Below the pieces are notes generated by a model. That model did not search any database and was not told where the DNA came from. It was given only the letters and a program-made list of their open reading frames with translations. A program made the translations under genes and the position numbers. DNA of 61,066 nt, filler included, from Sphacelaria rigidula (taxonomy: Eukaryota): assembly GCA_964200075.2 (NCBI GenBank). It is 9 parts of 9 records of this genome, joined end to end, with 100 filler letters (N's around TTAATTAATTAA, not from the genome) between each part and the next. Parts side by side here need not be neighbours in the genome. Positions count along the whole stretch, not along the records: positions 27,187 to 33,882 come from CAXNAA020018556.1; 8 more parts are not named here. The stretch is one strand, 5' to 3'. Positions within the stretch are counted from its first letter, which is position 1, and each line of letters begins with the position of its first letter. Below, piece after piece: positions 6,698 to 45,599 of this stretch.

Positions 6698-6797
6698 NNN
6701 NNNNNNNNNNNNNNNNNNNNNNNNNNNNNNNNNNNNNNNNNTTAATTAATTAANNNNNNNNNNNNNNNNNNNNNNNNNNNNNNNNNNNNNNNNNNNN
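6698..6797. other. Artificial contig linker (N44-TTAATTAATTAA-N44); identical linkers at 13495-13594, 20291-20390, 27087-27186, 33883-33982, 40679-40778, 47475-47574, 54271-54370
   Basis: Same 100-nt spacer with six-frame-stop core repeated every 6796-6797 nt. Confidence 0.98.
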
Positions 6798-6874: not shown

Positions 6875-7098
6875 GATTTGATTGCACGAAAGAAGAGGCT
6901 CGAAAGTGTGTCAGACGACCTACCACACTCGCGGTGCGCTTGTATTTGGTTCAAAACGGCGTCAATCGGTACGAACGAGCATTATGTTTCTATAACAAGC
7001 TCGATCAAGCAACCGTTGCTCCTTTCAAGGACGATTCGACTTGGAATTTCGTGCGAGAAGTGGCCCAAAATACCCCCCTCTCTATCGTAGGATAACTC
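6875..7098 (+). mobile_element. Partial MITE, same family as 9000-9252
   Basis: High similarity to 9027-9252; ends ctatcgtaggataactc, after which Gypsy gag sequence resumes. Confidence 0.8.
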
Positions 7099-10000
7099 GC
7101 ATGCTGCCATGCAAACTCTGCATCGCACGTCATCGGCGTCGTCGCCATCGCCAGCGCCAGCTCTCATCGAGGCATTTACGGCTTTTTGCCACGCCACGAT
7201 CCAAGATCAATGGACGTCTGCTCATGTGCAATTCAATGATGATTCTGCACCTGCCACGCCCAAACCCGTACGTCTGGCATCCCGTTTGGCGACATCGCGC
7301 TCTCCGTTTGTCACTCGTGAACAATCCAATGGACATGAGTCCAGCCTTTCCTCAACGTCGCAGCAGAGCCTTACTCGCGCTTCTGACCGGCGCCGCACAC
7401 CGAGACTTGGTCACGACCACGTCTCCCGTTCTGGCAGATCTAAGGGCAACTCCCAGCAAAGGTTGAATTCATCGCGCGTTTCTACACGCCCGAAGAACGT
7501 CACTCATGATTACACTTACCGACGGTAGTTCACGCCACAGCTCCAACTCATCACGCGCTCCGCAGCGCTGGGTGAATGCTAACCGTGAACGTACTCACGA
7601 GGATGCCTTGCGGCACAGATCAAGTTCTTCGCGCGTTCACTCGCGCTCGAAAAACACCGATCATGCGCCCTCGCGCATTTCTCCTGCTCCACATCAGTCA
7701 AACAACCGCCATGTACGCAATGATAACACTGTGCATGCTGATGATATCCAAAACATATTTTCGGACATGTCACCGGCTCCGGAATCCTCAATTGAAGGAT
7801 CCGGCCGCACCTCATCGCAAAACCGACGACCACGCACTAACCGCGAACCACCGTCCCGTTCCGATGCTGCGCATATTCGTTCTCTTTAACAACGCTTGAC
7901 AGAACTCGAGCGACAACTGTCTACCGTGGACCCTTTATCATCCGCTGCCGCCGCCGCTACAGTCAGCAAGCCCACTCGCGCTCCCGCAGCTACTGCTGCC
8001 GCTACTGTGACCGCTGCGCCTTCAGCCGCCCTTGCGACGGCTCATACAACCGCCGCCGCTCCATCTGCCATCGACACGGGCGCCGATGGCGGTTCCACAA
8101 CTGCCCCTGTGCGCCCGCCCCCATCCGTGGAGATTCTCCCTCCACTCGGCGACGAGCACTGCTCCACCGGCCGGCTCCTACGTCTGTTCACCACCCGACC
8201 CCGCGTGGAACAGCAACAGCTCATTGCCGATTATGCATCCCAGGCGCCGGCATTGGCGCAAAACATACTTAGTCAGCAACGTGACGCTGACGCTGCCGCT
8301 GCCCGCCTCCTTCTGGAGGGGCACGCAGAAGTGCTGAAGGACCTCCAGCGGCAGGCCTCCCACGCTCAATCCACGAGCACGGCGGCACAACAAGCGCTAT
8401 AGGAGGGCCGTACTGCTGCCATGGCGGCCCAAAGACGGGTCCGCGAGCTAGACGATCATGTTCAGTGGACAGCTCAAGCAACGGACATGTCGGTGGCGCG
8501 CCTATCCGACCATCAAGCCTCTCCGCCTTCCGCCAACAACTTGCTCAGGATCCACCTGCCGGCGCCCAACATATCGACTTACGTTATTCCATGAAAGTCC
8601 GACCGGACGTCGTCTGCTGCGGCCACTGCCGCCGCCACGACGCCTCCGACACCGCCACCGCAAGAAGTTAGCTCGGCGCCGAGCGCCGTTTCGGCGCAAG
8701 ACTTGCGACTTGTGTCCCACGAACGAGAATAACTTTCTCGTCCTGTGACCACTCATACCGGTCCTTTTGAACGCCGAAACCACCTCCACTGTTCCCAAAA
8801 CACATGGTCCTTAATCTCCCAACGTATGTTCTATACTGTTGGGGTTTACGTCGAACAGAACGGTTTTCTCCCCAAACAGGGCGTCTCGGTGTCTTGGGCC
8901 AACTGGTCCTGCAGACAACCATTGGCAATCACCGGGATCACTACACTTACGTTGACGCGGTCATCCAACGTTTTGCGGCGCTTCGCGCCGCCTACAACAG
9001 AGTCACCCTACGATAGGGGGGGGGGATATTTGATTGCACGAAAAAGAGGCTCGAAAGTGTGTCAGACGACCTGCCACACTCGCGGTGTGCTTATATTTGG
9101 TTTAACACGGTGTCAATCGCTATGAATGAGCATTATTCATCGATAACAAGCTCGTTCGAGCAACCGCTGCTCCTTTCAACGACGATTTGACTTGGAATTT
9201 CGTGCAAGAAGTGGCCAAAACTACCCCCCCCCCCCCTATCGTAGGATGACTCAACACTCATCTCGGCCTCACCATCGACGGAGACGAAGATGAAGATGGG
9301 TGGATTCCCGTAACATCCAATTGCCGGGGCCAGAGGAAGAATTACAGGCGCGACGACGATGATAACGATGGAGGGAATTCACGCCGCCGTCATGGCGGTG
9401 GGGGATCCTCTTCGGGCGGTTCCGGACCGAACCGCCCACCTCGCAAACTGCACCGAAAAAACCACACGGAGGTAATTCTTCCGGTTCATCGGCACCCGGA
9501 TGGAACAAGTCTGACACAGATCTTCCCGCCTCGGGCTTGGCGACCCCCAGGCAAGTGATTCCTAAGTTGGCTGATGTTTCGGCCCGCATTTTAGGTTTGT
9601 CCGATACGGATACACCTGACCGTCCTTTGTCGTCTACTGCACCCCGCGCTTTAGCAACCTCTGCGGCTGACAAAGAACGTTCTGAAGCTAGGAAAGAAGC
9701 AGCTTCCGATAGAGCTGAGTCTACCCGAGTAGCTGTAATACAGAGACAGTATATTCAGATGGATGTGAAAAAACTCTGGCACATCAAAAGCATGCCTGCC
9801 GCGGATAACGAAGGTTCGGGCCAGTTTACTTCTGCCCTCATCACGTTCATCCGCCGCACTGTTTGTAACATCCTTCTGGCATACACCGTTTCGAAGATTC
9901 CGACCGGGTAAAGGGCTGGCAGACTCCCTTGCACAAAGCAATGCACCGATCGATCAGACGCCGCTCTCCCGACCTCGCTGCTTCCTTAACGCAGATTCTC

Positions 10001-13000
10001 GACGGATTCCTCGCCGAGATGGACCCGGACCGTGCCAAGGGGAAGACAGGCCCGGTATTACTCTCTGATTTGGAGAGGCGTCTGATCGGCTACTTCGATA
10101 AAAGTGACCAAGCCAGTGCCATCCAGGGGCTGAGCTCTTTTGTCTTCGCCTCTGATGTACCCTTCGCGGATTATCTCCGCGAATTTAAGCTTTTGATTTC
10201 GGGTACGACGGGTGTCGGACGCCAGAACGGACCAAGCGACGCAATGTGTCAGACTTACGTTCGCAATAGTGTTGCTCAACAGTATCCAGCTCTGATGCCG
10301 TCGTTGTTTCCGGGTGTCTTGGCGCATCGCGAGGTGCCTTGCGCCTCCAATGATACTATATGGTCTGCTTTTGTACACCAAGAGGGTAATCTAACGCCTA
10401 CCATCAGTGGCAAACCCTCAACGTCTGTGCGTTCACAACCTATGGTTGTGTCCTCCGCTCATGCCCAAGGGACTCGTGGCAGGAATTCGAGCTTGTCTCG
10501 CGCTTCATGGACCCCCGACTCAGTCGCCGGTTCAGTTATGCATGTTCAAGATACCAGAGATGAATTAAGCGCGAGTTTTGACGGTTGGCCGTTTTCCGAG
10601 GAAACTTGGGATGATGTTCATTTGACTTCAACAATGGCATTTATAACCGATGACCCCCACTTGTGGAACCCGCTTCTCTCTTCTTCCGCTAGACGCAATA
10701 CCTTCAGCAGTCATGCCAACAGTTGCATCAACTGTGGTGTTCAAGGCCACAGCATGCGCGACTGTGACAGTCCATGCATCAATGCCTTTGATCTCATGAA
10801 CTCTGGATTGCAGGACAATGAACCCGCGTGGCGCCGATGGCAAAAACGCATGCGGGACTATCATCCACAAACTCGAAATTACCGCAACAATTCGAACCAA
10901 CGTGGCAACAAAAGCTCTAATCGCAGTCGCCGACACAACAACAATCACGGAAACCCTCGCCAGAACGATCAAAATTCTCGCGACAACAAACGTTCCGCTG
11001 ATAGACACCAGCGGACGGGACCGACACAAAGTTCTAATCCTAACACCAGAAGCCCTGGTACCTTCACAACGGATTGCTTAGATCCATGACGTGCCGACGC
11101 CGGCGTTCTTCGGTCTTCCACGCCGTCGATAGCACGAGCGGAGACTTTCTCAACACAGCCCGCGGAGTCCGTGTCAAAAATCGCTGACTCGACTGCCCCG
11201 ACACTATCCAAGAGCGTAACTGACGGCCGTTCATTCAGACCCCCGTCTTCATCCCTCCACACACCGCGTAACAGTTGTGTCACCCCGCGACTCAGATCTA
11301 CACCCGGGATTGAATTTGGTCCTTCAGTACCGAGTATAAGTCTGAGGTGCGGGAAGACCAACCACCAGTCCCTGAGGCAAAGGTTTCCCTCAGCGACCGC
11401 ACACACAGGTAGCAGCAAGCCTTTTTCAGCTGACCCAAGTGCTGCTGATTTGAACCTGACCACATCGGATCATGTAATTCCTAATCAGTTCGATCGGGCT
11501 CCTTCCCCGCGCTTTTTAAAACGCACGGACCTACCTTCGGCCGGTTTTATTACCAACCGCCACAACATATCTTCGGCTATGCCCCAACAGCCAAACTTCC
11601 CTACGGAAAGCAGCCCACAAGTTTCGCTCCGCCATGCCCCGATGCTGACCCCATCCACGCAACTGGACGCAGTTATGTATCATCCCCAAATGCTTTGGAA
11701 GTTCCCCGACCTTTGTCACGGCGAAAGAGAAAGCCCCGTAAGCATGCCCCCAAGGACGCGCGCGCATCATTACGTACACCTCTCTCGAACGGGAATCCTC
11801 GACCTCAATCTCTCCAAAATGCGACGACTTGGCGCTCGACGGCTTTATCAAGTATCCCGGAAGAAACAAAGTCACATTATTCTGACGGCACTGCTTCTTC
11901 AATCGACGCCTCCAGCCCCGCACTTCCTGGATCCCCCTTCGACGGTGATCCCTGTCAACCAAAGACGATCATTTACGGAATCGCCCATGACCGTGCCACA
12001 CCTGGAAATAATATACCGTCCACCCCCTTCTCTGGTGAGACGTCTGATCCACCGGCGGATCACCCGCCGTGCGTTTTTGCTGTCAGCCCCGCTGATCCTG
12101 ACCAGTTTACCTTGCCGGAACACGGTCCGGATCTTGTCGGCGGCAAAGTGTCTGTCGATCCGGCCACTTTCACTACTCGCGTTGCGATCCATGCCGGTCC
12201 AAACGCTATCACGCCTACGAAATGTGTATCCTTGTTGGACAGCGGCAGCCCGCAAACATTCATTCGAGAATCAACATGGAAACACATGAAACACACTGGC
12301 GCTGCTACTGCAGCTTGCGAAACCACCACCAAACCTCGAGTGTGGGGCGGTTTCGGTGACTCGACCGCGCCACTGACGACCCGTAAATCCGTACGTCTCA
12401 TTGTGCGATTCTTTCACAACACCACTCGATCTGCCAGCCTGGCATTCTGGGCATACGTTGTCCCCGACAGCACCATGCATCACGCCATATTATTGGGCAG
12501 AGATAGCTATATGCGGTAATAAACGCACCTACCGCACGCTTCCACCATTAACGCCACATTCCCCGCCGCGTGGAGAATTCAACCTCGAGCACTTCGGTAC
12601 TCTCCACGGCGCCCTGGCTTATCAGAAGAATCCTCAGGCGACCGGAGCTGCTTACCACCTACGATATAACGGTAGTGTGGCTATTACACTCTCCGACGAC
12701 CCCCAACTTCTTGACGTTGCACTAGTTCGTCGAAATGGCATGCCAGCACTTACGGGCCATTATCTTGCCGAAATGTTACCCCGTATTGGCGCACCAGCCG
12801 ACACAGAACATTTTGTGTGGGCGGGACAACAACTCCTCCCCCTTACGGGACATGCTAACTTGGAACCCGACGATGTTTTAGGAATCGCCGCTGCTCCCCT
12901 GTTGTACATCCCCCTCGAGACGTGCGTCGCAGAGCCTGCCGCACCAACGAACACATCCCCGGCGGAGTCAGTACATTGTGTCGATGAACCTTATTTCGAT

Positions 13001-13494
13001 CTCGCCTCTGCGACTCTACCCCAGGTCCACACCGTGGATCCTGTCCAGTCAAATTCCGATCCTCCTCCTGAAGTGCTTCAACGCTTATCACCAGATTCTC
13101 GGAATAGCTTCTTGCACATGTGGGACCAACTGCCGCCACACATGCGCGACATCAATTTTGACCTTCATGGACCCGGCTGGGAACCGGCAGCCATCCAAGA
13201 ACTCAGTGATGTCCTGCTACAGTACCAAGACCGATTTCCCGATCCAAGACGGATCTTGGGCATTGTAAAGCATTGCCCTTTGAAGTTACCCTCCAACCCG
13301 GTGTCTCGCCGATTTCTTCTCGGCCATACCGTACCAACCCGATCCTTACCAAGAAAGTCAACGCCACCTTGGATGCGTATTTGGGAGCGGGACTAATCCA
13401 ACATTCCTCCTCTCCTTGGGCCTCGCCACTTGTGGTCGTCCTCAAAAAGGATGGAAACATACGCATAACCGTGAATTATCAACGGTTGAACCGC
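7099..13494 (+). mobile_element. Ty3/Gypsy LTR retrotransposon internal region (long gag-like ORF, aspartic protease, start of RT), decayed and cut by contig end
   Basis: CCHC knuckle CINCGVQGHSMRDC (ORF 9929-11089); protease LLDSGS...ILLGRD (ORF 11695-12519); RT N-terminus SRPYR...SSSPWASPLVVVLKKDGNIRITVNYQRLN (13273-13494); PR directly followed by RT is Gypsy order; several stops and frameshifts. Confidence 0.92.
9000..9252. mobile_element. 253-bp MITE with GAG...CTC termini and 4-bp TSD (AACA), Sola-like, inserted in Gypsy gag
   Basis: TIRs GAGTCACCCTACGATAGGGGGGG / rc GAGTCATCCTACGATAGGGGGGG; AACA at 8996-8999 and 9253-9256; insertion absent at homologous site (~27915) of the second Gypsy copy. 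Confidence 0.9.
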
Positions 13495-23850: not shown

Positions 23851-24087
23851 GATGACATTATAAGTCTATCCAACGTGGTGAGCGATCCGAGACTCTTTAT
23901 GAGGAACGGAGGATGGAAATAAGCGAGCCAAGTGGACCTTTAGCACTTGGATCGACAGGTCCCGACCGATGACATTATAAGTCTATCCAACGTGGTGAGC
24001 GATCCGAGACTCTTTATGAGGAACGGAGGATGGAAATAAGCGAGCCAAGTGGACCTTTAGCACTTGGATCGACAGGTCCCGACCGAT
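23851..24087 (+). repeat. Perfect 117-bp tandem duplication
   Basis: gatgacattataagtctatcc...ggtcccgacc repeated at 23851 and 23968. Confidence 0.93.
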
Positions 24088-24539
24088 TCATTTGAATTTA
24101 GGCTGACTTGCGGGATAATGTTGCCCCTCTTTTGTTTTGACTGATTCAATACATTCATGACGCCAAGAACCTCAAATATACCGCATGGTACGTAAGACTA
24201 CATGGGAAATATCTCCGATGCATTGGTGAGTAGGTGTCATGTGGAGGTTGGGCCCATGGTTTTTCCAGGGATGGATGGGGAAGAAGCCGTGCCCGGGGGT
24301 GGCATACACCGTCTTGTCCTGTCGCAAACGAACGGTGGTGCTCCTGACTAAGGGTACACGGTTCAGACGAATCAGAGTTCATACGGGTTGACTCCCCATG
24401 AATGTAGAATGCGAATTATTGTACCAAAGAGTCATCTCGTATAAATCACGGATGATAAAGTTGTATGTTCAAGGTTATACCACACGAAGCACGAACTGGG
24501 AATGTGTACACTCCACGTAGTATCAGACGAATCCAGAGT

Positions 24540-24960
24540 GCTACATATGTACGAATCACGATTCCTGTATAGATCATGGATGGGAAACACGTACGTATGA
24601 TTCATCTCCCATGAATGGGAGGTAGGGAACATGTACGTATGATTCATGCTGCATGAACGGAGATTGGGAGACATGTACGCTTGATTCAACTTGTGTGGAT
24701 GGAAGGCAGAGAACATGCATGTATGATTCATGCCGCATGAACGGAAATGGGGAAACATGTACGCTTGACTCACCTCGTTTGAATGGAAGGTGCAGAACGC
24801 ATGCCCTTGATTCATGCTGCATGGATAAAAGGGGAGATACAGGTACGCTTAATTCACCTCGTATAAATGGAAGGTGGGAATCATGTATCTATTATCCATC
24901 CTCACGAACGCGGGGTGGATAACATGTCCATGAATCACGTGATTCATGCTGTGTGAACCA
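24540..24960 (+). repeat. Degenerate ~40-41-bp minisatellite array 1 (core acatgtacgtatgattca)
   Basis: About 10 diverged units. Confidence 0.85.
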
Positions 24961-25409
24961 TACGAAAATAAGCAGCTAGAAGAATCACTCTAGGCGTGCA
25001 GATGCGAGCTGTGCCATGCTGTACCCTACTACACGCGCACTGCAGAGTACGCTGCGGCAGTTTCCCCGGAAACTCCCGCGAGCATGCGAGGACAACTCAT
25101 GCTGGTGCTGTGTTTTCCGCAAGTCTTCGTGGTATTGTATACGGTATGTATGCTCAGGTCAACTGGACCACAGAATACAACGTGAAGCCACAAAGGATGT
25201 CAATAGCATAGCTCGGGGGGGAAATTGGCCAGAAAAAAACACTCTGGGCACGCGAGCGTGTGTGTTGTACTATAGTTGATGTGTTACGTATGAATACAAA
25301 ACTGAGATTGGGTTATTGCGGATGGATTTGCTCTTGAGGGGTTTGCGACCTGTACGCGTTTGTTTGCCTGCCCCACCTGTATAACGGCGGCGCCTCCGAA
25401 GAGTCGCGC

Positions 25410-25830
25410 CCCATGAAATGATAGGTGGGGAAGTGCATGTTCACATTATTTATACCACATGAACAGAAGGCGGAGAACATGTACGCATGATTCGCGCTGC
25501 ATAACTGAAAAGTGGAAAATTATTACACTTGATCCATCTCGTATGAATGGAAGGCAGGGAACATGTACGTATGATTCATGCCGCATGGATGGAAATTGGG
25601 ATACATGTACGCTCGATTAACGTTGTATGAATAGCCGATGGAGAACATGTACGTATGATCCACGCTGCATGAACGGAAATAATGAATGATGTACGTTTGA
25701 TTCAGCTCGTATGAATGGAACGTAGGGAACGTGTGCCTATTATTCATGCTGAATGAACGTAAATTGGGAAACATGTACTACCTATGATTCACGCTATACG
25801 AATGGAAGATAGGAAACGTGCACCTTTGAC
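25410..25830 (+). repeat. Degenerate ~40-41-bp minisatellite array 2, same family and orientation
   Basis: About 10 diverged units of tgaatggaagg..gggaacatgtacgtatgattca. Confidence 0.85.
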
Positions 25831-26403: not shown

Positions 26404-27186
26404 TTAAGGTAAGTTCTACGCTGTCTATTGGTACCGGCCACATGTTCAGATTGCTCGTTGTCGGGTCGCAAATGGCTCCCGCGTCGGATATCACCCGCTT
26501 CCCGTGTGCGGGGAGAGGATGTGTCGAGCTTATTCCCGGGGAGGAGAGGCGGCGGGGAGCAGGAGTCCTGAAGCGGTAGAATAGGGTGAGTACGGTCTAA
26601 CAGTGCTTCTCACGTGTTCGGGGGTATCTCCATCCTGGTGTATATAAAATGTTCTGACGGTGCATGGTGGCCCCTGCGCGTGCTTATCGAGGGGATGAAC
26701 CAATGTCTCCCCAGTGGTGTCCGTAACCCAGCTGACAAAAACGGCATGTAATAAATATTACAGAGGCGTATACAGTTACGGAATCCTCGACGCCATTTCG
26801 CTAATATTTGAGCGACGGAAACGTTATCCATATTAATGAGGTTGCCACACAGAAAAATAAAACGGAAAATAAATATTTTCATCATGAGGTATGCCTTAAT
26901 ATTGTGTTTGGAATGTGACAAATGATTGCTAAAAAAACGCATCAACAATGTTGTCACACAAAAACAAAATGTGTACGAAAAAGGTTTTTTGTGCCGAGTT
27001 TGATATAGCTGTGGACGTTCCCCATTTTTTTTCGGGAGGAAGGGGGGCGTACTCATTTGTTGCTTGCCTTAGTCGTTTGATCATTGNNNNNNNNNNNNNN
27101 NNNNNNNNNNNNNNNNNNNNNNNNNNNNNNTTAATTAATTAANNNNNNNNNNNNNNNNNNNNNNNNNNNNNNNNNNNNNNNNNNNN

Positions 27187-30100
27187 GGCGGCTGATCGAT
27201 CGATGCATTGCTTTGTGCAAGGGAGTCTGCCAGCCCTCTACCCAGTCGGAGTCTTCGAAACGTTGTGTGCCAGTCACATCCGCCAAGTGAAGGATGTTAC
27301 GAACAGTGCGGCGGATGGACGTGATGAGGGCAGAAGTAAACTGGCCCGAATCTTTGTTATTCTCGGCGGGCATGGTTTTTATGTGCCAGAGTTTTTCACA
27401 TCCATTTGAGTGTACTGGCTTTGTATTGCAGCTACTCGGGTAGACTCAGCTCTATCGGAAGCTGCTTTTTTGCTAGCTTCCGAACGTTCTTTGTCAGCCG
27501 TGGCGCTTGCTAAAGCGCGGGCTGCAGTAGAGGACAAAGGACGGTCAGGTGTATCCGTATCGGACAAGCCTAAAATGCGGGCCGAAACATCAGCCAGCTT
27601 AGGAACCACCTGCCTGGGGGTCTCCGAGCCCGAGGCGGAAAGAGCTGCACCGGACCGGTTCCAGGCCGATGCGGATGATCCGAAAGAGGTGCCTCCGGTG
27701 TGCTTGCTTTTCGGCTTGCGGAGCGGGTGGTTTGATCCGGAACCGCCCGAAGAGAATCCTCCACCGCCATGGCGGCGGCGTGAATTCCCACCAGTGTTGT
27801 CATCGTCATCGCGATGGTGATTCTTCTTGTGACCCCGGCAATTGGAGGTCGTGGTGGTCCACCCATCCTCATCTTCGTCATCGTCGGGGAGAGTCGTGGC
27901 GGGATCAGAGTTGGAAGCGGCGCGTAGCGCCGCAAAAAGATTGGTGACAGTGTCGACGTACCGGTGGAGATGCGGACTATCGCCGATTGTCGCCTGGAGG
28001 ACCAGTTGACCCAAGGTGACCGCCGACACGCCGGCGTCCGGGAAGAAGCCGCCCTGTTCCACGTAGCCACCAATAACAGCTAACATGCGTTGGGATATGG
28101 TGTTCCAAGCTGGCGGGAACAGTGCAGGTGATTGTTTCGGTGAAAGGGGCCAGTATAATCGGCCGCAGACCGAGAAAGCCACACTCGTTCGAGTGATGCA
28201 AGTTGCAAGCGTGTGTGGGGGCTGGCAGTGACCGCCGGGCCAGGTGTACGAGGCGGCGTGGGGGCGGCGACGGCCGCGACAGATGACGCCCTGTCGGACT
28301 TACGTGGAATCACGTAATCCGACCTGGTGTTCGTGGGCTGTCGAGGAGGTCGAGCTTCAAGCAAGTGGTCGGCGTAAGGCGGCGGGGGGGCTTGATGCTG
28401 TGTCACCCGCGCCATCGACGAATCCGCTTGTTGCGTAGTGCGCCGGACATGATCTTGTAGCTCGCGAACCCTCGTTTGTGCCGTCAAGGCTGCAGTCTGC
28501 CCTTCTTCTAATGCCCTGTGCGCCGCCGTCTTAGTGGCTTGGGCAAGTAAACCCTGTCGCTGAAAATCCTTCAGCTTTGCAGCATGTTCCTCCAAAAGGA
28601 GGCGGGCGGCAGCCTCGTCAGCATTGCGTTGCTGGTCTAGTATATTGCGAGCTAGCGCCGGGGCTTGGAACTTGTAGTCTTGAATGAGCCGTTCTTGTTC
28701 CGCGGGGGGGCGGTCCTGGAATTATCTCAAGAGAAGCCCGGTGGGGCAATGCTCGTCGCCGAGCGGAGGAAGATCCTCCACCGAAGGAGGCGAGCGCACG
28801 GAGACGTCCCCGACAGGGGCAGTGGTGGGACCACTATCCGTATCAGTGTCTACTGCAGGCTGGGCGGCAGCAGGAGTTGGGGCCGTGGCTGCAGTGGCTG
28901 CTGCAAAAGGCGCAGTGACCACGGTAGTGGCGGCTGAGGCGGAAGTGGGAGCGGCGTTGGTGGTCTCCCTCGTAGGCGTGGCAGCAGCGGTAGTGCACTT
29001 CGTGTCCATGGTTGCTGTTGCCAGCTGTCGTTCAAGATCCGTCAAACGTTGTTGCAGAGAACGAATAAGCGCAGCGTCAGAACAGGTCGGTGGTTCGCGG
29101 TCAGTGCGTTGTCGTCGGTTGTGCGATGAAGTGCGGTCGGATCCTGCAAGTGAGGATTCCGGAGCCGGTTATATGTCCGAAAATATTTTTTGAATATCGT
29201 CAGCATGCACAGTGTTATCATTGCGTACATAACGGTTGTGCGACAAAGGCTGAGCAGTAGAGATGCGCGAAGGTGCATGATCGGAGTTGTTCAAGCGCGA
29301 GTCAACGCGCGAAGAACTTGATCTGGGCCACAAGGCATCGTCGTGAGTACGGCCATGGCTAGTGTTCACCGGGCGCTTAGGAGCGCGGGATAAATTGGAA
29401 CTATGGCGCGAACCACCTTCATATTTGTGTCCATGAGCGATATTCTTCGGGCGTGTGGAAGCGCGCGATGAGTTTAAGCTTTGCTGGGAGTGGCCCTTAG
29501 AACTGCTAGAACGGGAGACATGGTCACGACCAAGTCTCGGTGTGCGGCACCGGTCAGAAGCGCGAGTATGGCTCTGCTGCGACGTTGAGGAAGGGCTGGA
29601 CTCATGTTCGTTGAACTTATCATGAGTGACGAAGGGAGGACGTGCTGTCACCGAACGGGTCGCCAGACGTACGGGTTTGGGCATGGCAGGTGCAGAATCA
29701 TCATTGAATTGTACATGAGCAGACGCCGACTGATCTTGGAGCGTGGCGTGGCACAAAGCCGTAAATGCCTCGATGAGAGCTGGCGCTGGCGATGGCGGTG
29801 ACGCCGAGGAGGTGCGATGCAGAGTTTGCATGGCAGCATGCATGGCCGCAACTGCAGGTCCGACATTGGACTGCGCAGTAGGGCGCACGGGACTATCCAG
29901 AGTCTTGCGAAGGGAGTCCGTAACGGAAGCAGCCCGTGTGACAAAGTCTCTTGCTCCAGAAGCGATGCGCTTCGTCGGGACAGAATCGTCTCGAGAGTTG
30001 TCAGCCGTCAAGCGACGGGGTGCCACGGTTGGTGCCACGGTTGAAGCAACCGTGACAGGGCCGAGCTGGACACGTGTGTCCAGGGGCAACGACTCGACTG

Positions 30101-32392
30101 AGGGCACAATCCTAACTCCGGATTCCACATTGGGATTCGGGGGAGCAGGGGCCAGCGAGGGGTGTGCGACGGAATCCACCGTTATGGGCTCACTGACATG
30201 CGCGTCAGGAACCAATGACTCGGCCGGGTGCACTACCAGGTTCTCTGAGTCCAAGTCGGAACGTGAGAGAACAGGTCTCGGCGTCGAAGTCTGGTCTTCA
30301 AGACTTGAAGAACGAGCTTCGCTCGAATGTTGGTCTTCAGATCCCGAAGAACGAACAGCGCTCGCATACGTGCAGCGATGCGTTGAAGGTGGCGTGCCGC
30401 TCATCTTAAATGATTTCGAACCGCTAGTAGTCTGGCTTCGGGTCCGGCGAAGCGATTGGTTTCCCAATTGAGGGGAGGAGCCAGCGAAAGTGTTATGCGA
30501 CATGATATTAGTACGCAACTTTTATTTCAAAAAGGCAGGTGCAGTATGTCTGGTCTGTGAGCTCTAATTATAGGAGTGTGGCAAACGAGCTGCTACGTGC
30601 AAAAGTCGGAGATTATAGCCGGAATTACTGGATAATGAAGCCTAATAGCACCTGGGGGGACCGTGGGACCCGATGTGCTTGAGTAATTTATTCAAGCGAA
30701 TTGCTGTATGTAACAACTTTGTCCGGGGTCTGGTTAGTACAACTTTATTAAGGTTGTGGCGGTTAGGGCTATCAACGGAGCTCGGAATTGTGCAAAGAAC
30801 AGACGTATGTCGTCGAAGAAAAAATGAGGACCCGATTGTCTGCAGGAACTTGGGTACGTGGAAGTCGTAAAACCCACACGTGTTCCGGGTGTGCGTGACA
30901 GGCAGACTACAACTAACTGTATTATCACGGGACAGGCTGAGGGGCAACTGGCGGTGTGCAACTGAAACTTGTCGCTTTCAGATGCGCACGAAAGTTGCAC
31001 AGTGCGATGCAGCACAAAAGCTTTTACAAAGCTTGGGTATGGGGCCGCGAAATCTGGCTGCGTGGTGCAGAGCGAAGGCTTGTTATCCAACGAAGTCGAG
31101 GCAACGTATGACGCGCACGAAAGTTGCACAGTGCGATGCAACACCAAAAAGCTTTTACAAAGCTTGGATATGGGGCCGCGAAATCTGGCTGCGTAGTGCA
31201 AAGCGAAGGCTAGTTATCCAACTAAGTCGAGGCAACGTATGATGTACACAAAAGTTGCGCAGCAAGGACAACGCTGAGGGCGGTGCCAAAAAATGTAGTG
31301 CACAGGCAAGGGGCACCGATTTCAGGTGCTGTTTGTTCAAATGAGCACGTAACGGAGGTTGAAATGTTTCAACTAGTAGTATTTCAACGAAACCGTCTCG
31401 AAACAATAATTTTCTTCGTTCGAGAAGGGGTCAAAGGAGGAAAAACTCACAGTACGTTATGCTGTGTATCGTTACTTACCACGGTGATGTACCGCGTTGC
31501 CTTACGGTTGTGCGAAGTACACAAGAGGACAACAAGAACAAAGTAGCCACCAGCAACGAAGCTAAAGCTACAACAACAACAAGGTACCTACGAGCAACGA
31601 AGGTAAAAGGCCGGAACAATCCAAAGTTTGTGTACAGATGTCCGTTATCACACTGTGTGAGCACGGTTTGTACTTGTTCAGTAATTTCGTGAAGAAAAGA
31701 TACAACAGTCGCGTACAATCGATACGGGAAAATAAGAGCAGCAACGTGCCGGCTTGGCAGGAGCTCAGATCAGGAACAGCGGCTCGCGATGAACAACAGT
31801 GCGCCTTTGTGCACTGGTGTTCTGTACGAACCTATAGTAGAAGGCTTATTCTGTAGAAGAAAAGGGGGCCACAAGACCAAATACACGAGCCAACGATGGC
31901 TTGGTGCGGTTCGGCCGGGCTGGTGAATCACGAAAAGATTCACAGCCGTGCAGGCGAAGCTGATACCGTGGGACCTTGTGCAGGTGATGTCAAATTGACA
32001 GCACGGCCAGAACAGCAAGCAGTGCGCGTTGACCCCACGTTGACCACACAAGATGTGGCGTCGAGTGCTACAGCAATTGCAAGTAGCAGAGCACGAATAC
32101 ACTTGACCGAGAGACACACGGGGCAGAAGCTTGAGAGCTGCTGACTACCTTAGCGGTAGGTGTGACTACGACTGTCCTGAAGGGAAAAGGGGCAAATGAT
32201 CAAAAAGCTGGAGTACACAGCTGGCAGCCAGGGATACAAATCGGTACAAGAAGGAAACGCAATAGCCAAAGAGGAAGTTCCTTAGTCAGACGCCAATGTA
32301 ATAAAGAGCAAGCGACTGTATAATGCAAGGACACACCTTGCAACCCGAGGCACAAGCTTGGCAGGCAAGTGTACAGCCGTCAGACTGTTACA
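27187..32392 (-). mobile_element. Second copy of the Ty3/Gypsy family: putative 5' LTR, leader and N-terminal part of the gag-like ORF (decayed)
   Basis: ORFs 29169-30518, 28722-29045, 28080-28595, 27379-28182, 27131-27373 align to 7099-9960 (HAAMQTLHRTSSAS, LPPLGDEHC, PKLADVSARILGLSDTDTPDRPLSS). Confidence 0.9.
30709..32392 (-). repeat. Putative 5' LTR (1684 bp), with an internal ~128-bp tandem duplication at ~30984-31260
   Basis: Minus strand starts TGTAACA and ends TGTTACA (perfect 7-bp inverted termini), about 200 nt upstream of gag ATG at 30503; second LTR not in window. Confidence 0.62.
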
Positions 32393-32759
32393 ACGTGCAG
32401 ATGCCGTATAACCTGCTCAATATCCAATGTTAGCCGAGGTTCGCGCAATAGGTTCTTGGACTTCTCTCTCAATTATCTTGATTCTAACTCCGATACCACT
32501 CAATCAATCCAACCCAGACCAGCCAATATCTCTCACCAGTGGTTAGATGTCCTTTTGCTGACTAGCAGATGGGAGCAGTTGGTAGTGCTCATCAGGGGGG
32601 TTTGTTCGTGGCTACAGCGAACAAAGGCCGTATTATTCCTGTGATTATACAGGTTCACATTCGTATCCGACCAACTCTGAACAGACCTGTAGTCTCCGGA
32701 ACAAAAGCACGCCATGGCTAGAATCGACAACGAGTCTGAAGCGGCATCAACAGACAAAT

Positions 32760-33420
32760 ATGCGTCTTCATGACACTGCCTCTGCGTCATCCTTTTGGCA
32801 CCAGTCCGCCATAAACCTTTGTGCTCCCTGTTCAACACAGCTGTGCCACTCTACTGCATTCGAGGCTCTGGCAGTCCATCCCTGCCATTCGATACCGAAC
32901 GCCTCCGTGTCTTCCGCTAGGCAGCGGATTCAGTCCTCGTGCCTGCCGTTAAACTCTCTTTCTTGTCAATTCACGACTATAATATCACCAAACATGATGA
33001 CATGTTTCGGTATCCGTCCGGGTGACATGCGCGTGACGAAACCGGCGAAATGGAGTCTCCTTTTCCTCACCGTCGTCTCGATGCTTTCGCACCCTGTCCT
33101 CGCGAGGGTCTCTCGGTATGACAGAACGTGGCCTGTGCGATTGCGCTCGCGCCATCCAAGGCAGCGCCTGAGCAACGCATGGTGCGCCGTGCGTAGTAGA
33201 TTGTAGTGGCCGTTGAGAGGGGTCCATGTGACGCACCCGTGCAGGAGCGCTTCGACAGCCTCGGCTTTGATCATGCGGACCTCGAGGTGGACGTCCGCGT
33301 TCGATCGAGTGTACAGTTGGACTTTGCACTGGTGGTAGCTCGACCATGTCCCTTGTACGCGCTTTTGATCTTCACCGAGAGGTCGCCGCTCTCCGTAATT
33401 TACCCCCTACATAGCACAAA
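32760..33420 (-). mobile_element. Non-LTR retrotransposon (RTE-like LINE) ORF C-terminal fragment, decayed
   Basis: IKAEAVEALLHGCVTWT...LLRRCLGW...LSYRETLARTGCESIETTVRKRRLHFAGFVTRMSPGRIPKHVIMFG, typical post-RT region of RTE-clade ORFs. Confidence 0.82.
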
Positions 33421-33882
33421 CACCTTTTACATATCTCATCCCCGTCCTGTTTCGCCGTCTGTGGCCGCCATCTATCTCCTAGTATAGCCATCATTTTCTT
33501 CCTACTGTCTAATGCATCAAACGATTCAATGTCACCTTCGTTCACGTCCCGCATTTCCCCCTCTAGCACGTCCCGTTCCTCCTTGTATAGTTTACATTCT
33601 GCCACTGTATGACTTCTGCTCTTCATTCCGTTGCCACAGAGGCAGATCTGTGTATCTACTTCCTCCTCCTTTCGACGACTGGTATTTCTCTTCCTTCTTT
33701 CTGGCAGGTACAGGCCCCCCACCCGGAATCGCAGTTTCCCGTTTTTTCGCCGCGTCCATTGTGCCATGCAGATAACGTTTTATCCCGATCCCCTCTCTAA
33801 ACCACCCATATATCTCCAGGTGTTCTTCCTCGTCTACTTTGCGTCTGAGCGCTCCTTTGCCCCTTACTTCAATCATATCTCT
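33421..33882 (-). mobile_element. Second LINE fragment with C-terminal Cys/His knuckle-like region
   Basis: GIGIKRYLHG...LRFRVGGLYLPERRKR...CLCG...SRSHTVAECKLYKEER; frameshifted. Confidence 0.6.
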
Positions 33883-34381: not shown

Positions 34382-34943
34382 GTCAGTCATCGGGACGTAG
34401 TCAAATGTTTGGACAACAACGTTTGGCGTCATCACTGCAGTCAGGACCTGTAGTCAGGACCTGTAGTCAATACTCATGGTACGATGGAAGCATGCGCTCT
34501 GCTAAATGCCTTCTATTTCACTGCAGGCGTGTCGGAGCGTTCGAGCTGACGCGCGTTTCGCAGGAAATGGGTACGTTGGTACACCTCGTCACGTGGGTTT
34601 GATACGTTGCCAAGAGTCATGTGGTATTTATTAACAGTGTATTGAACCCTTTCCTCTGCTGCATGTCGAACACGCCCTCGTTGATGGCCACCCGCGCTGC
34701 TTCTTGTCTCCTTTGACGTGACACTCGGCTGCTTCACCCCATGCAACCTTTGACATCGCCCCCCCCCCCCCCCCCCCCCCCCGAAGACGGCGGCGGCGGG
34801 GGGGGGGGACCGCCGGCGGGCCACCCACAAGGACCGAAAACAGACNNNNNNNNNNCCCCCCCCCTCCTCTTTTTTCCCTTTGCCGGGACCCCCGCCTGCT
34901 CCCCCCCTTGCACCCTTTGCCTCCCCCCCCCCCCCCCCTGAAG

Positions 34944-39559: not shown

Positions 39560-40288
39560 TAGAGATGTGCTCCGTTTGAATTTTGCAAACCGAGCGGATT
39601 TCGGATTTCCGGCAGCCTCATCCGGATCGATCCGCGGATTGGAGAAAGTGGCGGATATCAGAATATCCGAATATCCGAATATCCGAATATCCGGATGTCC
39701 AACTTGCAGACGGATTTCGAGGAAAACAAACGATGGATACTCCTCAACTCTCCCTATATGCATTTTGCGCATGTTGTCTGAAAAAGGGTAGTGGAGCTTT
39801 GGATCACGTATCACGAGTCGCATCGGCTGCTCCATCTCTTCCCGCGAGGACACAATTTACGATCTCACGACCATCTACTGGTTGCAACGTTTCTGTCGGA
39901 TTCTTTTCAATTGAGTGTTGATCGAGTAAACTTCTCGGCCGCTTCCCAAGAACCCTCCAGAAACATCGGCATCTCAAGCCGTTTTTGCTTGAATTTGTTT
40001 GTTCGTTGCATCATAACAAGCCCACTCTGCGGGAAGACTCGCTCTGAGGGACCTGACGACGCCGGAACACCCGGGGCGTTCCGAGCGACGTGCCCAATGA
40101 GTAGATACTTGTGCGCTTTCAGCGCCCCCCACTTGAGCGGGTTCTCGCCTATGGCCAGAGCATGTTCTATCGCAATATCCAAATACCAAGAAAAACAAAT
40201 CCACGCATTTGTTCTTCAAACGGAGCGGATTAGGACTGGAGGTAAACGGAGCGGATATCCGGAGTGGACGGAGCGGAGCACATCTCTA
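39560..40288 (-). mobile_element. Internally deleted hAT transposon (729 bp) retaining a decayed C-terminal dimerisation domain
   Basis: TIR TAGAGATGTGCTCCG / CGGAGCACATCTCTA; perfect 8-bp TSD CTTTCCAG (39552-39559, 40289-40296); ORF 39907-40182 NPLKW...ARN.PGVPASSGPSERVF; subterminal gaatatcc repeats. Confidence 0.95.
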
Positions 40289-43200
40289 CTTTCCAGATAC
40301 TTCTCTGCCATTACTTTCCAGCTACTTTCTTTATTGAGGCTTCTTCAGCGAGTGCTCCCGGTTATTTATTTTTGATGCAGGAGTCGCCGTGCCCCGGTAG
40401 TCTAATTCGTGCATCGGTTAGGGCGAAGGTGAAGGTCTGATTGTCGGCAGATATACGTTTTTCTTTTGAGGAGTATATCTTCTTTCTTGTGTTGAAAACA
40501 TGATGAGAACGTGGGTATGAACAGCACAGGAAATTTGGCGATGGTCGACGCAGTACGAAAGTAAGTGCTGATCCAATCCACAACACCAAATGTCAGGTAT
40601 ACACCGCGTGGGAGGGGGGGGGGGGGGGGGGCTTCAAGATCGTGGAAGACGGAGGCGTGAGCGGGGTGAGCCCCCCCCNNNNNNNNNNNNNNNNNNNNNN
40701 NNNNNNNNNNNNNNNNNNNNNNTTAATTAATTAANNNNNNNNNNNNNNNNNNNNNNNNNNNNNNNNNNNNNNNNNNNNATACGAAGATTTTAATCCTCCG
40801 GGTTCTCATTTTCAATGAAAAGCACCATCCTCAACATAGATGATCGGCTGTTTTTACGAGTAAAGAAAAAGCTTAGTTTTCGCTGCTTTGAGGATGAATC
40901 CTCGCAGCTGTAATAAAGGTACGTCTGGGTGGGTTGGCGTCATGAAGACGCATCTTAGCTTGTTGCCATGCCGCTTCAGACCCGTTGATGACTGTGGCTA
41001 TTTGAATTTAGGGGTATTCTCAGACCTCAGACTGCAGGTCTGTTCAGAGTTGGTCAGGTACGAGTGTGAACTTGTATATTGCAGATATGATATCGGCTTT
41101 GTTTGTCCTCGCACGAACGAAGTCTCAGTCTCCTGTCACTACCGTCTACTGCCCCTCTCTCAGCAAGGAGTCTAACATCAGTGAGATTGATATACTGAGC
41201 GTGAGATTGGATTGATTCATTGGATACTGGAAGGTCGAGACCAGACAATAAAGAAGAAGACATAACGAACGCGTGAGATACTGGTTTACTTGAACACGTC
41301 TTGTGTGGGACTGGTGCACAGGGTGAGAATACACTGAACATTACCTTGTCGCTTGGCTGTACGGTCTTTCGACTGTCCACTTGCCTTGCCTAGTGAGCCT
41401 GTGCTTGTCATAACAGCACCGTAACCCCATTACAATTCGTACACCGGAAGCTGTTCGAAATAAATCCTCATCTTGCCGGTCAATACCTGGATCAGGCAAA
41501 ACAGATCCTATTTGCTGGTAGCTTTTGCCCTTCAAGCCCCATATGCTGTACCGTGTTAAAAAAATAGGCTGTGGAGCTTACTCTCGTCAATGCTTCGTAT
41601 GGTATTGTATTTGCATCGAGGAATAGTATGGATCGCCGGTGCTGCTTACGATAGTCTGGTCTGATATGGAGCGTAGCAGTAGGTGGGTTGCCCTCACTAT
41701 TCTTGGTTGACCGTTCAACACGGTGGGTTGTTTGGACTGTCTTGCCCGCAAGCGGCGCCTTGAACACTATCTTCTGTCTACACTCCAAAGCAGCTTGTCT
41801 GCTTGCTTGGCTTAAGTTCCATTGCACCAACTCTAGCGATCACGACGAAGGGGTCTTAGCGACACCTTTTCTAACAGGTTATGAGCCTCGGCGTTGGCGT
41901 CTACCCGGACTTTGGAAGAAGAAGGGCAGCAGCAAAAAGGAATTATCTTTGCTGGAAAACAACGTGAGTTGAGTCAAAGTAAAGACGGCACTACACTTGT
42001 GTGCGTCTGGCACTGCAGCAGTATATCACGAAGTGAGGACGGCACTCTATCCTGTCCGCACCTGGTGACATACGTAATATTTAAACAGCGGGACAATCGT
42101 TGGATCCTATTGGGGGAAAATTGAACGCATTTACTATTGAACTGCACAGCCGTAAATCCGCCTGCAACATCCTGTTTATCGATATCCTGTCTGAAGCTAT
42201 CCATCAATGAATGTCAAGCGGCTCATCCAGTGGACGCTGCCGCGGTGGGGGACCATTACGAGTGCTACTTCTCTACAGTTTTTTTGAGCTACCGACTAGT
42301 CAAGTGGCGGTGAGCAAAGCCGATTGTGTGGTGGGAAAACTATACTTGGACACCGTTGAACACCCTCTATCTATACTCGTGAAGTTGGAGCAGAGCGACG
42401 GACAGGATTCACAAGGCGGACAATGAAGGTATTCGAGGGGTACTGAAACTCTGTGCAAAGTTTGATGGCAGGGAGAAAGCGAGCTTCCGGGAATATAAAG
42501 ACACACTCCGGGTGATCCTGTCCCTCCACACAATGAGGCCGCAGAAATCCTGCAGGGGCGGCAAAGACCCAGATCCACCGTAATCAATGATTACCAACCA
42601 CCCTGTGATACGACAACTTCCGTGGCGTGGGATCGTGCAAACGATGATCTGTTTGGTATTCTGTTTTTCAACACGGAAAATTAACAAACAATACCGTCAG
42701 ACGTCATATGGGGAAAACCCAACAGGACGGGGTCGGGGACGGGCAAGCAGCGTGGGCAGCGCTGAGCAACAAATTTGTCGGCAACGGCAATGAGGCACGA
42801 AGGGAGTTCACCGACGAACTTCATACTACAACGATGCAGTCCGGAGATGATCCAGAATACTTCCTGTTTGTCATGGACGGCTACCCTGACCGCCTAGATG
42901 AAATGGAACAATGTATACCCGACCAGAGGTACGAGGACATTATCTTTCGAGCCCTGCCTGCCGAGTACGAAAGGGTTCGTATTGTTAGCTGCGAGATGCG
43001 TGATTTTTAATTTGGCGAATCTCCGATATATGGTCAGCACCATGTATACCGACTATCTCTCTCGCCCAGATGCTATAAACTTGGTCGCAGGCCGCGGGGT
43101 CGCCATGCAGGCCAGTGGAAGTGGGGATAGCAGAAGAAACTACAGAACATACTTCCGCTGCGGAAAGTGAGGCCACGTTAAAAGAATTGCCCCTCTCGAA

Positions 43201-43717
43201 ACGCGGCCCAATCACTGACAGGGAGAGACAAGGAAAAGAGGACAGAAAGCGAGTGGTGCTCCTTCCACATATCAACAACCCACAGCGACCAAGAGTGCCG
43301 TTTTTTGCAACGGCGCAACCAGCAGGCAACAAACAACCAGCAGGCAACACATCTCGCGCAGTGGTCGGGTTACCCACCAGTCACCGGTGCAAGGGAGCAG
43401 ACCTCAGCCATCTCCTTCAATACCTTAGAAGCGCCCCGAACACAAAATCCGCGGGAAATGGACAACCTTTCGCCGTTTGCTCCAACGAACAAGCCCGTTG
43501 CTTCATTTGACAGCAGCAGACTCTTCGGTGCCTTCGAAGGGACGGACGGGGCCGAGGAGGCCAGGAGTCTGGAGTTCCGGCGTAGGACTCACAACACATT
43601 GCGGGGAATCAAGGTGGCACTTTCCCTGATAGTCCGCGCCTTGGCCATAATAGCCGTGGTTCATTACGTCTGGTTGGTGTTTGGGAGCTTATTTTACCAC
43701 CGAGCCTCGTCGAGCCC

Positions 43718-43966
43718 GACGCTTTCTACGATAGCCCCCCGCCAAAACCAACCCAAGTCTGCCACAAAGAAAATGGTCATACAGCGTCTGATGTTTGATT
43801 TCAGGCTGCATCACGCGTCTCATACCGGCGACATTGGCGACACCGAACCCAAGCGTGGGAACTCCTAGCTGCTTGTTGTGCTCGCCTTTTTTATTTCGAT
43901 TAACGTGTAGATTTTGCATCCCCAAACCAGCCACTTTTTCGGGGGGGGGGTATCGTAGAAAGGGTC
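43718..43966. mobile_element. MITE inserted in Copia between gag and protease
   Basis: TIR GACGCTTTCTACGATAGCCCCCC / rc GACCCTTTCTACGATACCCCCCC; flanks gccc/accc (imperfect 4-bp TSD). Confidence 0.7.
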
Positions 43967-45599
43967 ACCCCTACGACAACGCTGGAACATTTGGTGGTAT
44001 CACCGACGCTGACGATGGGTCGGCTCTCGCGGCGGGACCCGCTCTCAACAAGTAGAAGGAAGGCAACAACAGCTATATCAACTCTGTCAGTGTCATGGTA
44101 GACAGTGGCCCGTCGGGAGATTTCTTTAACGATACCCTCATCCCGGGACTGCGACACAAACTCTGCAACTACCAGGAACTAGCGACCCCGCGTAAGATCA
44201 CCACCGCAGGAGGGCACCAACGGGCAGGGGTTGGTAAGGGACTGCTCCGACACGTCAAAGACGACGAAGGGGTCATGCGCGTGGTTCAGATTTTGTGTTT
44301 GGTCGTGTCTGCCTTGGGACGGAATCTGTTCTCCGTCAAGCAAGCGACACGAAATGGAGTGATATCTATTTCGAGATGAACAACCCAAGACTGGAAACGC
44401 ACAACTTCACCGTTCCGCTCCAGGAGCTGGGGAGTGACCTGTAGTTGTTTTCTCTAGAAGTAATCAGTGGCAACGACCCGCCCTGACTTGCCATGCAAGC
44501 TGCAGACACCACCATGCTGTGGCATTGGCGGACGGGGCACTTGAACAGCAATAGTTCGAACCTTCTTAAAACCGTCGAAAGTAACGAAGTGGACTTTGGT
44601 GGATCTATCCCGGACTGTAATATTTATGCTGTTGGGAAAAAACATCAACTAGCCCATCCGAAGACAGACAACAACAAAGTGCAACGCACCTCCCAACGGG
44701 TCCTGACCATGGGTGGGACCGGCGGCGTTCGGGTCGAACGACTCAGGGCAAACAAAGGGGGTGAATTTATTGGCAACGATTTTAGAACGTACTGTCCGCA
44801 GACAGCCATATTGCTAGAGTTTGCGAGCACCAATACATCACAACAAATTGGCCTGTCAGAACGCGAAGGAAGGACGCTTGCAGCCATGGTCTGGTGCATG
44901 CTTGCCAACAGCGGTTTACCGACCTGTTCCCTGGGGGGAATCAATGCGCAGGACATCCTACCTTGCAAACAGAGCACCGCACTGCGCGCTGAGAATGCAA
45001 TGTCCGCACAAGATGCTGCAGGGGAGAAAACCAGATCGAAGACATCCTCGAGTCATTGGGGCCAAGGTGTTCGTCAACACCAATGAGAGCACTCAGAAAC
45101 TATCTCCCGAGGCAGTCGGAGGACGATTGGTTAGCTATGGTGGCAAAAGCAGCAAGTGCTATCGCGTCTACATTATAGAGCCTTCACTACCCAACGACGA
45201 GGAGCCTGGCGACAGCGAGGGTCACAACCACACCCTCAATGACGCCTTCATACGCGACCTTCGCAATCATACTTCTGTATTTACTCATCCGGCTCATGTC
45301 TTTGCCGACCATGCCACTGCCAGCGGGGGCTTTAGAAATTTCACAAGGAGGCGAGCTTCCGGGGAGAATCGGCGCCATCACCAGGCGAAATATGCACGAC
45401 GGTGCCCCGATCCGTGGAGGGACGCTTCCGCACGATTGTCTTACACAGGCTGGTACACTGCCGGAGCAACTCGTGACACACCCACGGGACGAATTTAGCG
45501 AACACATGGTGACATGGCTCGCAGAACCATCACTACTCCACCACCATCGACACTCGCTTCATGGTGACATGTGCACGCATCGCAGCCCGCAACTACAGG

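Follow-up and report, generated by a model that had tools for sequence, protein, structure and literature searches.

A 61,066-base stretch of DNA from the brown alga Sphacelaria rigidula, filler letters included and called the window below, carries on its minus strand one end of a Ty3/gypsy retrotransposon. The element begins with a putative 5' long terminal repeat (LTR). Directly behind the LTR lies a ten-base candidate primer binding site (PBS), with the exact complement of these ten bases found on the same strand within the LTR. Behind the PBS follow a leader and a long open reading frame (ORF), and a second copy of the element, in the opposite orientation, lies elsewhere in the window (Table 1). 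The pairing of the two 10-mers may be a genuine self-primer site like that of the fission-yeast element Tf1, the likeliest of the readings weighed here, to which we assign a probability of about 0.4.

Table 1. Positions of the element copies, their parts and the adjoining repeat, counted along the window.
Feature	Position	Strand	Remarks
Putative 5' LTR, 1,684 nt	30709..32392	minus	TGTAACA at 32392-32386, TGTTACA at 30715-30709
AATTGCTGTA, candidate self-primer, LTR positions 315-324	32069..32078	minus	exact complement of the PBS 10-mer
131-bp tandem duplication in the LTR, two units, 91% alike	31016..31262	minus	repeat search and self-blastn
AATAAA, possible poly(A) signal	30744..30749	minus	35 nt ahead of the LTR end
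TACAGCAATT, candidate PBS, non-tRNA type	30699..30708	minus	directly 3' of the LTR end
Leader between candidate PBS and first ATG	30504..30698	minus	ATG at 30503-30501, 205 nt behind the PBS
Long ORF ahead of gag, rich in Ser and Pro	27187..30503	minus	cut at or in the mask 27087-27186
Second, inverted, 5'-truncated copy (copy 2)	7099..9962	plus	blastn
gag zinc knuckle CINCGVQGHSMRDC, C-x2-C-x4-H-x4-C, copy 2	10724..10765	plus	Pfam zf-CCHC at E 0.0094 only, under the curated cut-off
Aspartic protease motifs LLDSGS ... ILLGRD, copy 2	12232..12504	plus	by eye; LLDSGS at 12232-12249
Reverse transcriptase start, copy 2	13321..13494	plus	first ~58 residues; cut by the mask at 13495
Different repeat adjoining the LTR upstream, LINE-like (long interspersed nuclear element) by eye	32465..33406	minus	ORF 32969-33406; no Pfam match

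Identity of the element

The long ORF holds 813 codons in one frame with two stops (30521-28083), and is then frameshifted (28299-27382, followed by 27445-27187). It belongs to no Pfam family. Among 1.84 billion representatives the sole relative of its protein (P0001) is a 118-residue fragment from S. rigidula, 85% identical, and no homologue of near length was found. In blastn, nt 7099-8998 of copy 2 align with nt 29841-27910 of the first copy at 74% identity, and nt 9276-9962 with nt 27886-27187 at 84%. Copy 2 then runs on to nt 13494 through a CCHC gag, a protease motif and the start of the reverse transcriptase (RT). The protease stretch displays 47-54% identity to the parts of brown-algal polyproteins that precede the RT (tblastn); Pfam gave no match on it.

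The RT start of copy 2 matches 22 proteins at E <=1e-5 among 63 candidates. The best matches are Ty3/gypsy polyproteins of S. rigidula (77-86%) and of Ectocarpus sp. (62-65%). In full-length relatives the domain order is RVT_1, RT_RNaseH, Integrase_H2C2, rve. One relative matches the Ty3 Gag-Pol structure 7q5b at E 1.7e-96, and the relatives' polyprotein matches the Ty3 RT structure 4ol8 at E 5.2e-64. Judged by the RT-start matches and the domains of the relatives, the element belongs to the Ty3/gypsy retrotransposons and comes from a brown alga, so that both terms used in an earlier note on this DNA, Gypsy and algal, were right; the gag, protease and RT parts of copy 2 agree with them.

The Pfam searches covered ORFs of at least 90 residues in three sets: 13 ORFs; 75 of the 93 that overlap 13-36 kb; and 117 of 128, the other 11 being among the 13. 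Of the 18 that lie outside the 75, 5 were scanned separately, 12 are in the LTR or opposite the long ORF, and the ORF at 13210-13539 contains masked letters. Among these ORFs no RT, integrase or protease family was found near the LTR. The minus-strand stretch is best explained as the 5' end of an old, 3'-truncated Ty3/gypsy copy, which runs from nt 32392 to about nt 27187 and is lost at or in the mask there. The copy is judged to be old because of its two in-frame stops, its frameshift, its 74-84% identity to copy 2 and the divergence of the related pieces found in sequencing contigs.

The region ahead of the CCHC gag is of interest in itself. About 1,100 codons, rich in Ser, Pro and Thr and of no Pfam family, constitute an additional ORF or else a 5' coding extension of unusual length, and they stay an ORF in two copies that are just 74-84% alike in DNA. 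A NADAR domain (PF08719, E 1e-45 to 1e-48) lies between gag and protease/RT in four of the relatives. Three of these are from Ectocarpus sp. (P0013, P0014 and P0022, of which P0014 may be a chimeric gene model), and the fourth, P0008, is from a Logan-derived contig. The copy in the window shows no NADAR domain.

The putative LTR and its ends

On the minus strand the sequence begins with TGTAACAG at nt 32392 and closes with AAAGTTGTTACA at nt 30709, and TACAGCAATTCGCTTG follows directly on the 3' side. The two ends have the form TG...CA, and TGTAACA and TGTTACA make up a 7-nt terminal inverted repeat. It is close to the general LTR end consensus, which an excerpt of PMC3601003 gives as TGTTRNR...YNYAACA. 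The 7-mer alone would arise by chance about once per nine such regions (an estimate from 1,870 nt / 4^7). The cumulative purine skew has its maximum at nt 32401, 9 nt from the putative start, and the GC and AT skews switch sign near nt 32400. With these ends, the inverted repeat, the AATAAA and a leader before the long ORF, the stretch from 32392 to 30709 looks like an LTR. Its tandem duplication appears to vary: among the matches listed, 107 or 183 nt are missing at this place from contigs that stem from other copies, which indicates that the number of units differs between copies.

Several observations weigh against these ends, and with them against a self-primer site whose place depends on them. 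The ends rest on a single copy. No second LTR was detected in the window by repeat search, by blastn at word sizes 11, 9 and 7 or by nhmmer, and no second copy of the LTR-start 16-mer was found in it at up to three mismatches. Neither a target-site duplication (TSD) nor a polypurine tract (PPT) is present in the window, where each of the two element copies is truncated. If the stretch were a solo LTR, its flanks CACGT and TACAG would disagree as a TSD. At the upstream end the change point in mononucleotide composition is spread over a broad plateau (32330-32760), and 72 unassigned nt (32393-32464) separate the LTR start from the neighbouring repeat, which breaks at nt 32465. An AATAAA is also found at nt 30692-30687, beyond the candidate PBS, which shows that the patch is simply A/T-rich. 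In the searches with nhmmer and with blastn at word size 7, the best candidate for a second LTR was a match of 57 nt (E 0.003), which was judged to be noise.

The LTR might thus be mis-delimited. The stretch may instead be a long 5' leader, a composite that takes in other repeats, or an LTR whose ends lie elsewhere, and the adjacency of the 10-mer to the LTR end would then follow from the freedom with which that end was chosen. The single copy, the lack of a TSD and a PPT, the mismatched flanks, the broad change point and the 72-nt gap all favour this explanation. Against it stand the fit of the 7-nt inverted repeat to the consensus, the skew maximum just 9 nt from nt 32392, the AATAAA 35 nt before the end, and the position of that end 205 nt ahead of the first ATG of the ORF. 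Nor is there a better alternative that would provide a TGG-type PBS: of the 12 CA+TGG sites in 32800-30400, the sole one that pairs with the start at 32392 gives an LTR of 96 nt. We consider mis-delimitation unlikely, and the ends at 32392 and 30709 are probably, if by no means surely, correct as given. That the window yields no LTR pair and no TSD comes from the shortness of the material and not from a second end that disagrees. The earlier note had proposed self-priming for this element, and the proposal is supported in part: the Ty3/gypsy identity, the LTR-like anatomy, the lack of a TGG and the complementarity at the expected place stand, and the LTR ends and the RNA start near nt 32078 that it named are candidates.

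Complementarity between the PBS and the LTR

The end TGTTACA at 30709, the PBS 10-mer at 30708-30699 and its complement at 32078-32069 had been reported in the earlier note, and every coordinate and number proved to be correct. AATTGCTGTA occurs exactly twice in the window, at 30699-30708 on the plus strand and at 32069-32078 on the minus strand. Shuffled sequences give an expectation of 0.06 matches, and none of 100 shuffles contained two or more. The complement of the PBS is unique in the 1,684-nt putative LTR, where it starts at position 315, and 1,360 nt separate the two pairing arms. With the LTR end fixed, a perfect complement of the 10-mer turns up at offset 0 in 0.245% of 20,000 Markov shuffles, in line with the roughly 0.2% estimated earlier, and at offsets 0-5 in 0.72%. 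Shorter complements are far more frequent in the same shuffles (3.4% for at least 9 nt, 18% for at least 8 nt).

The candidate PBS is not of the tRNA type. No TGG occurs within 0-5 nt behind the putative LTR end; that none follows it immediately had been noted before. There is no tRNA gene in the window, and no tRNA-like sequence was recognised by eye in the stretch behind the LTR. A published in-silico criterion for self-priming, as given in an excerpt of PMC6317226, asks that some part of the 5' LTR be complementary to 10 bp or more that start 0-5 bp downstream of the 5' LTR. The pairing here agrees with it, at 10 of 10 nt and offset 0, conditional on the LTR end at 30709.

The pairing is less striking when both LTR ends are left free. 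We searched for any TG...CA pair in the 2,279 nt above the ORF that was followed, at an offset of 0-5 nt, by a self-complementary 10-mer. If the inverted repeat must measure at least 7 nt, the pattern appears in 4.8% of 3,000 shuffles, a frequency that speaks for mis-delimitation, and if 5 nt suffice it appears in 35%; at the latter setting the real sequence itself holds a second candidate. The interval 30400-32700 contains 15 inverted pairs of at least 9 nt, three of which are perfect 10-mers. The duplex is exactly 10 bp long with six A-U pairs, and the next pairs outward would be G-A and C-C. All of these points count against a self-primer site, as does the fact that the pairing is read from one LTR copy. 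What sets this pairing apart is solely that the 10-mer stands next to the presumed LTR end, and its weight hinges on 30709 being the true end.

A coincidence has therefore to be weighed. The LTR may be about right and the 10-bp complement accidental, the element being primed by a tRNA half or fragment or by a small RNA, or carrying a decayed PBS. The abundance of inverted pairs in these 2.3 kb fits such a coincidence. The age of the copy, seen in its stops, its frameshift, its 74-84% identity to copy 2 and the contig pieces that are mostly 90-95% alike or less, fits decay. Other elements provide parallels: excerpts of the plant survey (PMC6317226) state that 6% of elements have no detectable PBS and 2% use half-tRNAs, and an excerpt of PMC2864245 reports a Tcn1-clade element with neither a tRNA PBS nor a self-primer PBS. 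The chance of 0.245% for an exact complement at offset 0, with the LTR end fixed, argues against a coincidence, and the lack of a tRNA-like sequence behind the LTR, judged by eye only, argues against another primer. We regard this explanation as somewhat unlikely.

The absence of any independent mark at LTR position 315 also favours a coincidence over a self-primer site. By eye there is no TATA or initiator at this position. No significant composition change point was found inside the LTR, at position 315 or elsewhere; the highest log-likelihood ratio, found at position 880, is 5.6 and stays under the 95% shuffle threshold, which is 7.95. The RNA 5' end at nt 32078 is a candidate deduced from the pairing. 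A search of 30000-33000 against Rfam gave no accepted family; RsmV (E 0.012, far under the gathering score) was taken to be a chance match.

A modelled RNA of 1,419 nt starting at nt 32078 was used to look at the fold-back. The predicted duplex between the 5' end and the PBS has an energy of -11 kcal/mol and a pair probability of 0.19-0.33, and the helix is not part of the minimum-energy fold. According to the model, the fold-back is possible, yet not favoured.

The same pair probability would suit a functional role other than priming. Long-range contacts are known in retroviral leaders, and the two 10-mers might make one that shuts the 5' leader and so serves packaging, dimerisation or the control of translation, priming being left to a separate primer. 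The pairing lies exactly at the place required of a PBS, where no other PBS candidate is near, and no covariation speaks for such a contact. This role seems very improbable.

Other copies and neighbouring repeats

Copies of the family are very numerous in the sequencing runs containing it. Between 22,136 and 36,154 contig pieces per DNA-type run fall on 27187-33882 (6.7 kb), and they are mostly at most 95% alike, the range given being 90-95% or less. In each of the runs X1, X2, X3 and X6 the contigs cover 30 of 30 bins of this interval. All of the material from these runs consists of contigs, and none of the runs containing the stretch is recorded as RNA. One contig of run X6, a single record, follows nt 30694-30984 and then continues with 138 nt unlike the window. 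In this run, which is RNA only by guess, the depth per contig is lower over 30771-31890 than over 32115-33010; we used this neither for nor against any reading.

No related copy was found among viral contigs (searched with P0001, P0009 and alignment A1) or among metagenome contigs (searched with P0001). A 19-mer spanning the LTR end and the PBS gave no match in viral contigs, one in metagenome contigs and two in genome contigs. These three matches were set aside as chance, since the metagenome locus, the only one to show any alignment with the window, agrees over 21 nt and has dissimilar flanks. An ORF across the LTR/PBS junction (30645-30977) gave seven candidates among predicted proteins, none of them significant.

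The repeat that adjoins the LTR upstream differs from the element. At least three contigs of run X3 break away at its edge, nt 32465. We take its ORF to carry an RT-thumb-like motif, and nt 32620-32774 resemble nt 41103-40939 at 72% (blastn). Next to it, nt 33235-33882 form a repeat whose depth in the runs exceeds that of the Gypsy family about 100-fold. A minus-strand ORF in that repeat has a C-x2-C ... H-x4-C motif and displays 46-53% identity to residues 1732-1886 of the Ectocarpus protein P0014.

Copy 2 is accompanied by a 223-bp direct repeat, present at 6876-7098 and 9028-9252 and 88% alike between the two sites. One of them ends exactly at the 5' break of copy 2, and the other lies in about 278 bp that are absent from the first copy. 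The repeat may be a small mobile element or the solo LTR of another family. Elsewhere in the window there are Ty1/copia fragments (Retrotran_gag_2, Pol_BBD, SH3_retrovirus) and a hAT transposase dimerisation domain, at 42648-45495 on the plus strand and 39910-40215 on the minus strand. A perfect 117-bp tandem duplication occupies 23851-24087, and two arrays of 84-bp tandem repeats lie about 850 bp apart in 24463-25820. Runs of N stand at 6698-6797 and then every ~6,796 bases, each as two runs of 44 with 12 bases between, and also at 34846-34855. They look like masks and not like assembly gaps; both the RT of copy 2 (13495) and the first copy on its downstream side (27087-27186) are cut by them.

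Self-priming and known systems

If the pairing is a self-primer site, the genomic RNA would start at or near nt 32078. The 10 nt at its head, AAUUGCUGUA, would then reach back across some 1.36 kb of R-U5 to pair with the PBS, and after cleavage by RNase H just past the duplex the 3' end so released would serve as primer for minus-strand DNA. The two 10-mers would stay complementary because the PBS would be re-copied from the primer in each cycle. U3 would measure just 314 nt and R-U5 about 1.37 kb, so that the fold-back would cross a kilobase-long region. Tandem repeats in LTRs usually lie in U3, and with this start the 131-bp duplication would fall in R-U5, which is a further point against the proposal.

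The arrangement resembles that of Tf1 and Tf2 of Schizosaccharomyces pombe and of Tj1 of S. japonicus, in which a PBS that is not of the tRNA type stands directly behind the 5' LTR and is complementary to the element's own LTR. In an excerpt of PMC7175516, the first 11 nt of Tf1 RNA anneal to the PBS, and cleavage by RNase H falls between nucleotides 11 and 12; an excerpt of PMC4600332 describes the same arrangement for Tj1. The present case differs from Tf1 in its duplex of 10 instead of 11 bp, in its stramenopile host and in an RNA start that is deduced. No accessory U5 stem was found in the algal element, which is another difference from Tf1. The R-U5 loop of Tf1 is short. The loop of 1,360 nt proposed here would be far longer, and this too tells against a Tf1-like mechanism.

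In excerpts of the plant survey (PMC6317226), self-priming is predicted for 12% of the elements surveyed, and in the Tf1/sushi group and the plant Tcn1 and TAR lineages. The predictions of Neumann et al. 2019 for plant Tcn1, a Ty3/gypsy chromovirus, and TAR, a Ty1/copia lineage, used the same criterion and, like ours, were made from sequence. They drew on many full-length elements with both LTRs, whereas the present case has a single truncated copy, and the host kingdom differs. Predictions of this sort are common in the literature, and ours is made from one such copy. Ty3 of Saccharomyces cerevisiae shares with the algal relatives the order RT, RNase H, integrase. Unlike Ty3 and its tRNA-primed kin, the algal element has no TGG-type PBS, and it has an ORF of ~1,100 codons, rich in Ser and Pro, ahead of the CCHC gag.

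Whether the element belongs with the Tf1/sushi chromoviruses was read from its relatives, the integrase being outside the element copies in the window. Unlike those chromoviruses, the relatives have no Pfam chromodomain, even at E 10, which lends no support to descent from this self-priming group and counts against the self-primer reading. By eye, 4 of 26 relatives (P0009, P0010, P0014 and P0016) have a chromodomain-like motif, Y-x3-W-x-G-x5-SWE. It stands C-terminal to the integrase in a Pfam-negative segment that reads VDYISGHQLV...LYQTHW-x-GLTTPSWERESDL. Against the Protein Data Bank its sole chromodomain match is MPP8, a weak one (E 1.6); the top matches of this query, rhinovirus VP2 at E 0.079, were judged to be chance.

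A stramenopile Ty3/gypsy lineage, for which Tf1/sushi membership is only a candidate placement, may have evolved tRNA-free self-priming independently or kept it from ancient times. On the sequences at hand we hold this broader proposal to be doubtful. The earlier note knew of no description of self-priming in brown algae, and the literature searches likewise returned nothing relevant on self-priming in Ectocarpus or stramenopiles, or on the primer binding sites of brown-algal LTR retrotransposons.

So far fission yeast is where self-priming has been shown; for fungi, vertebrates, mosses and one plant copia lineage it has been predicted. If the self-primer reading is true, self-primed reverse transcription would extend to the brown algae, which are stramenopiles, with this element as the first brown-algal case. 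Its loop would be the longest proposed for a self-primer, showing that the fold-back can span more than 1 kb. The finding would then bear on how often tRNA-independent priming has originated, and on how a PBS is searched for in pipelines that annotate algal LTR retrotransposons.

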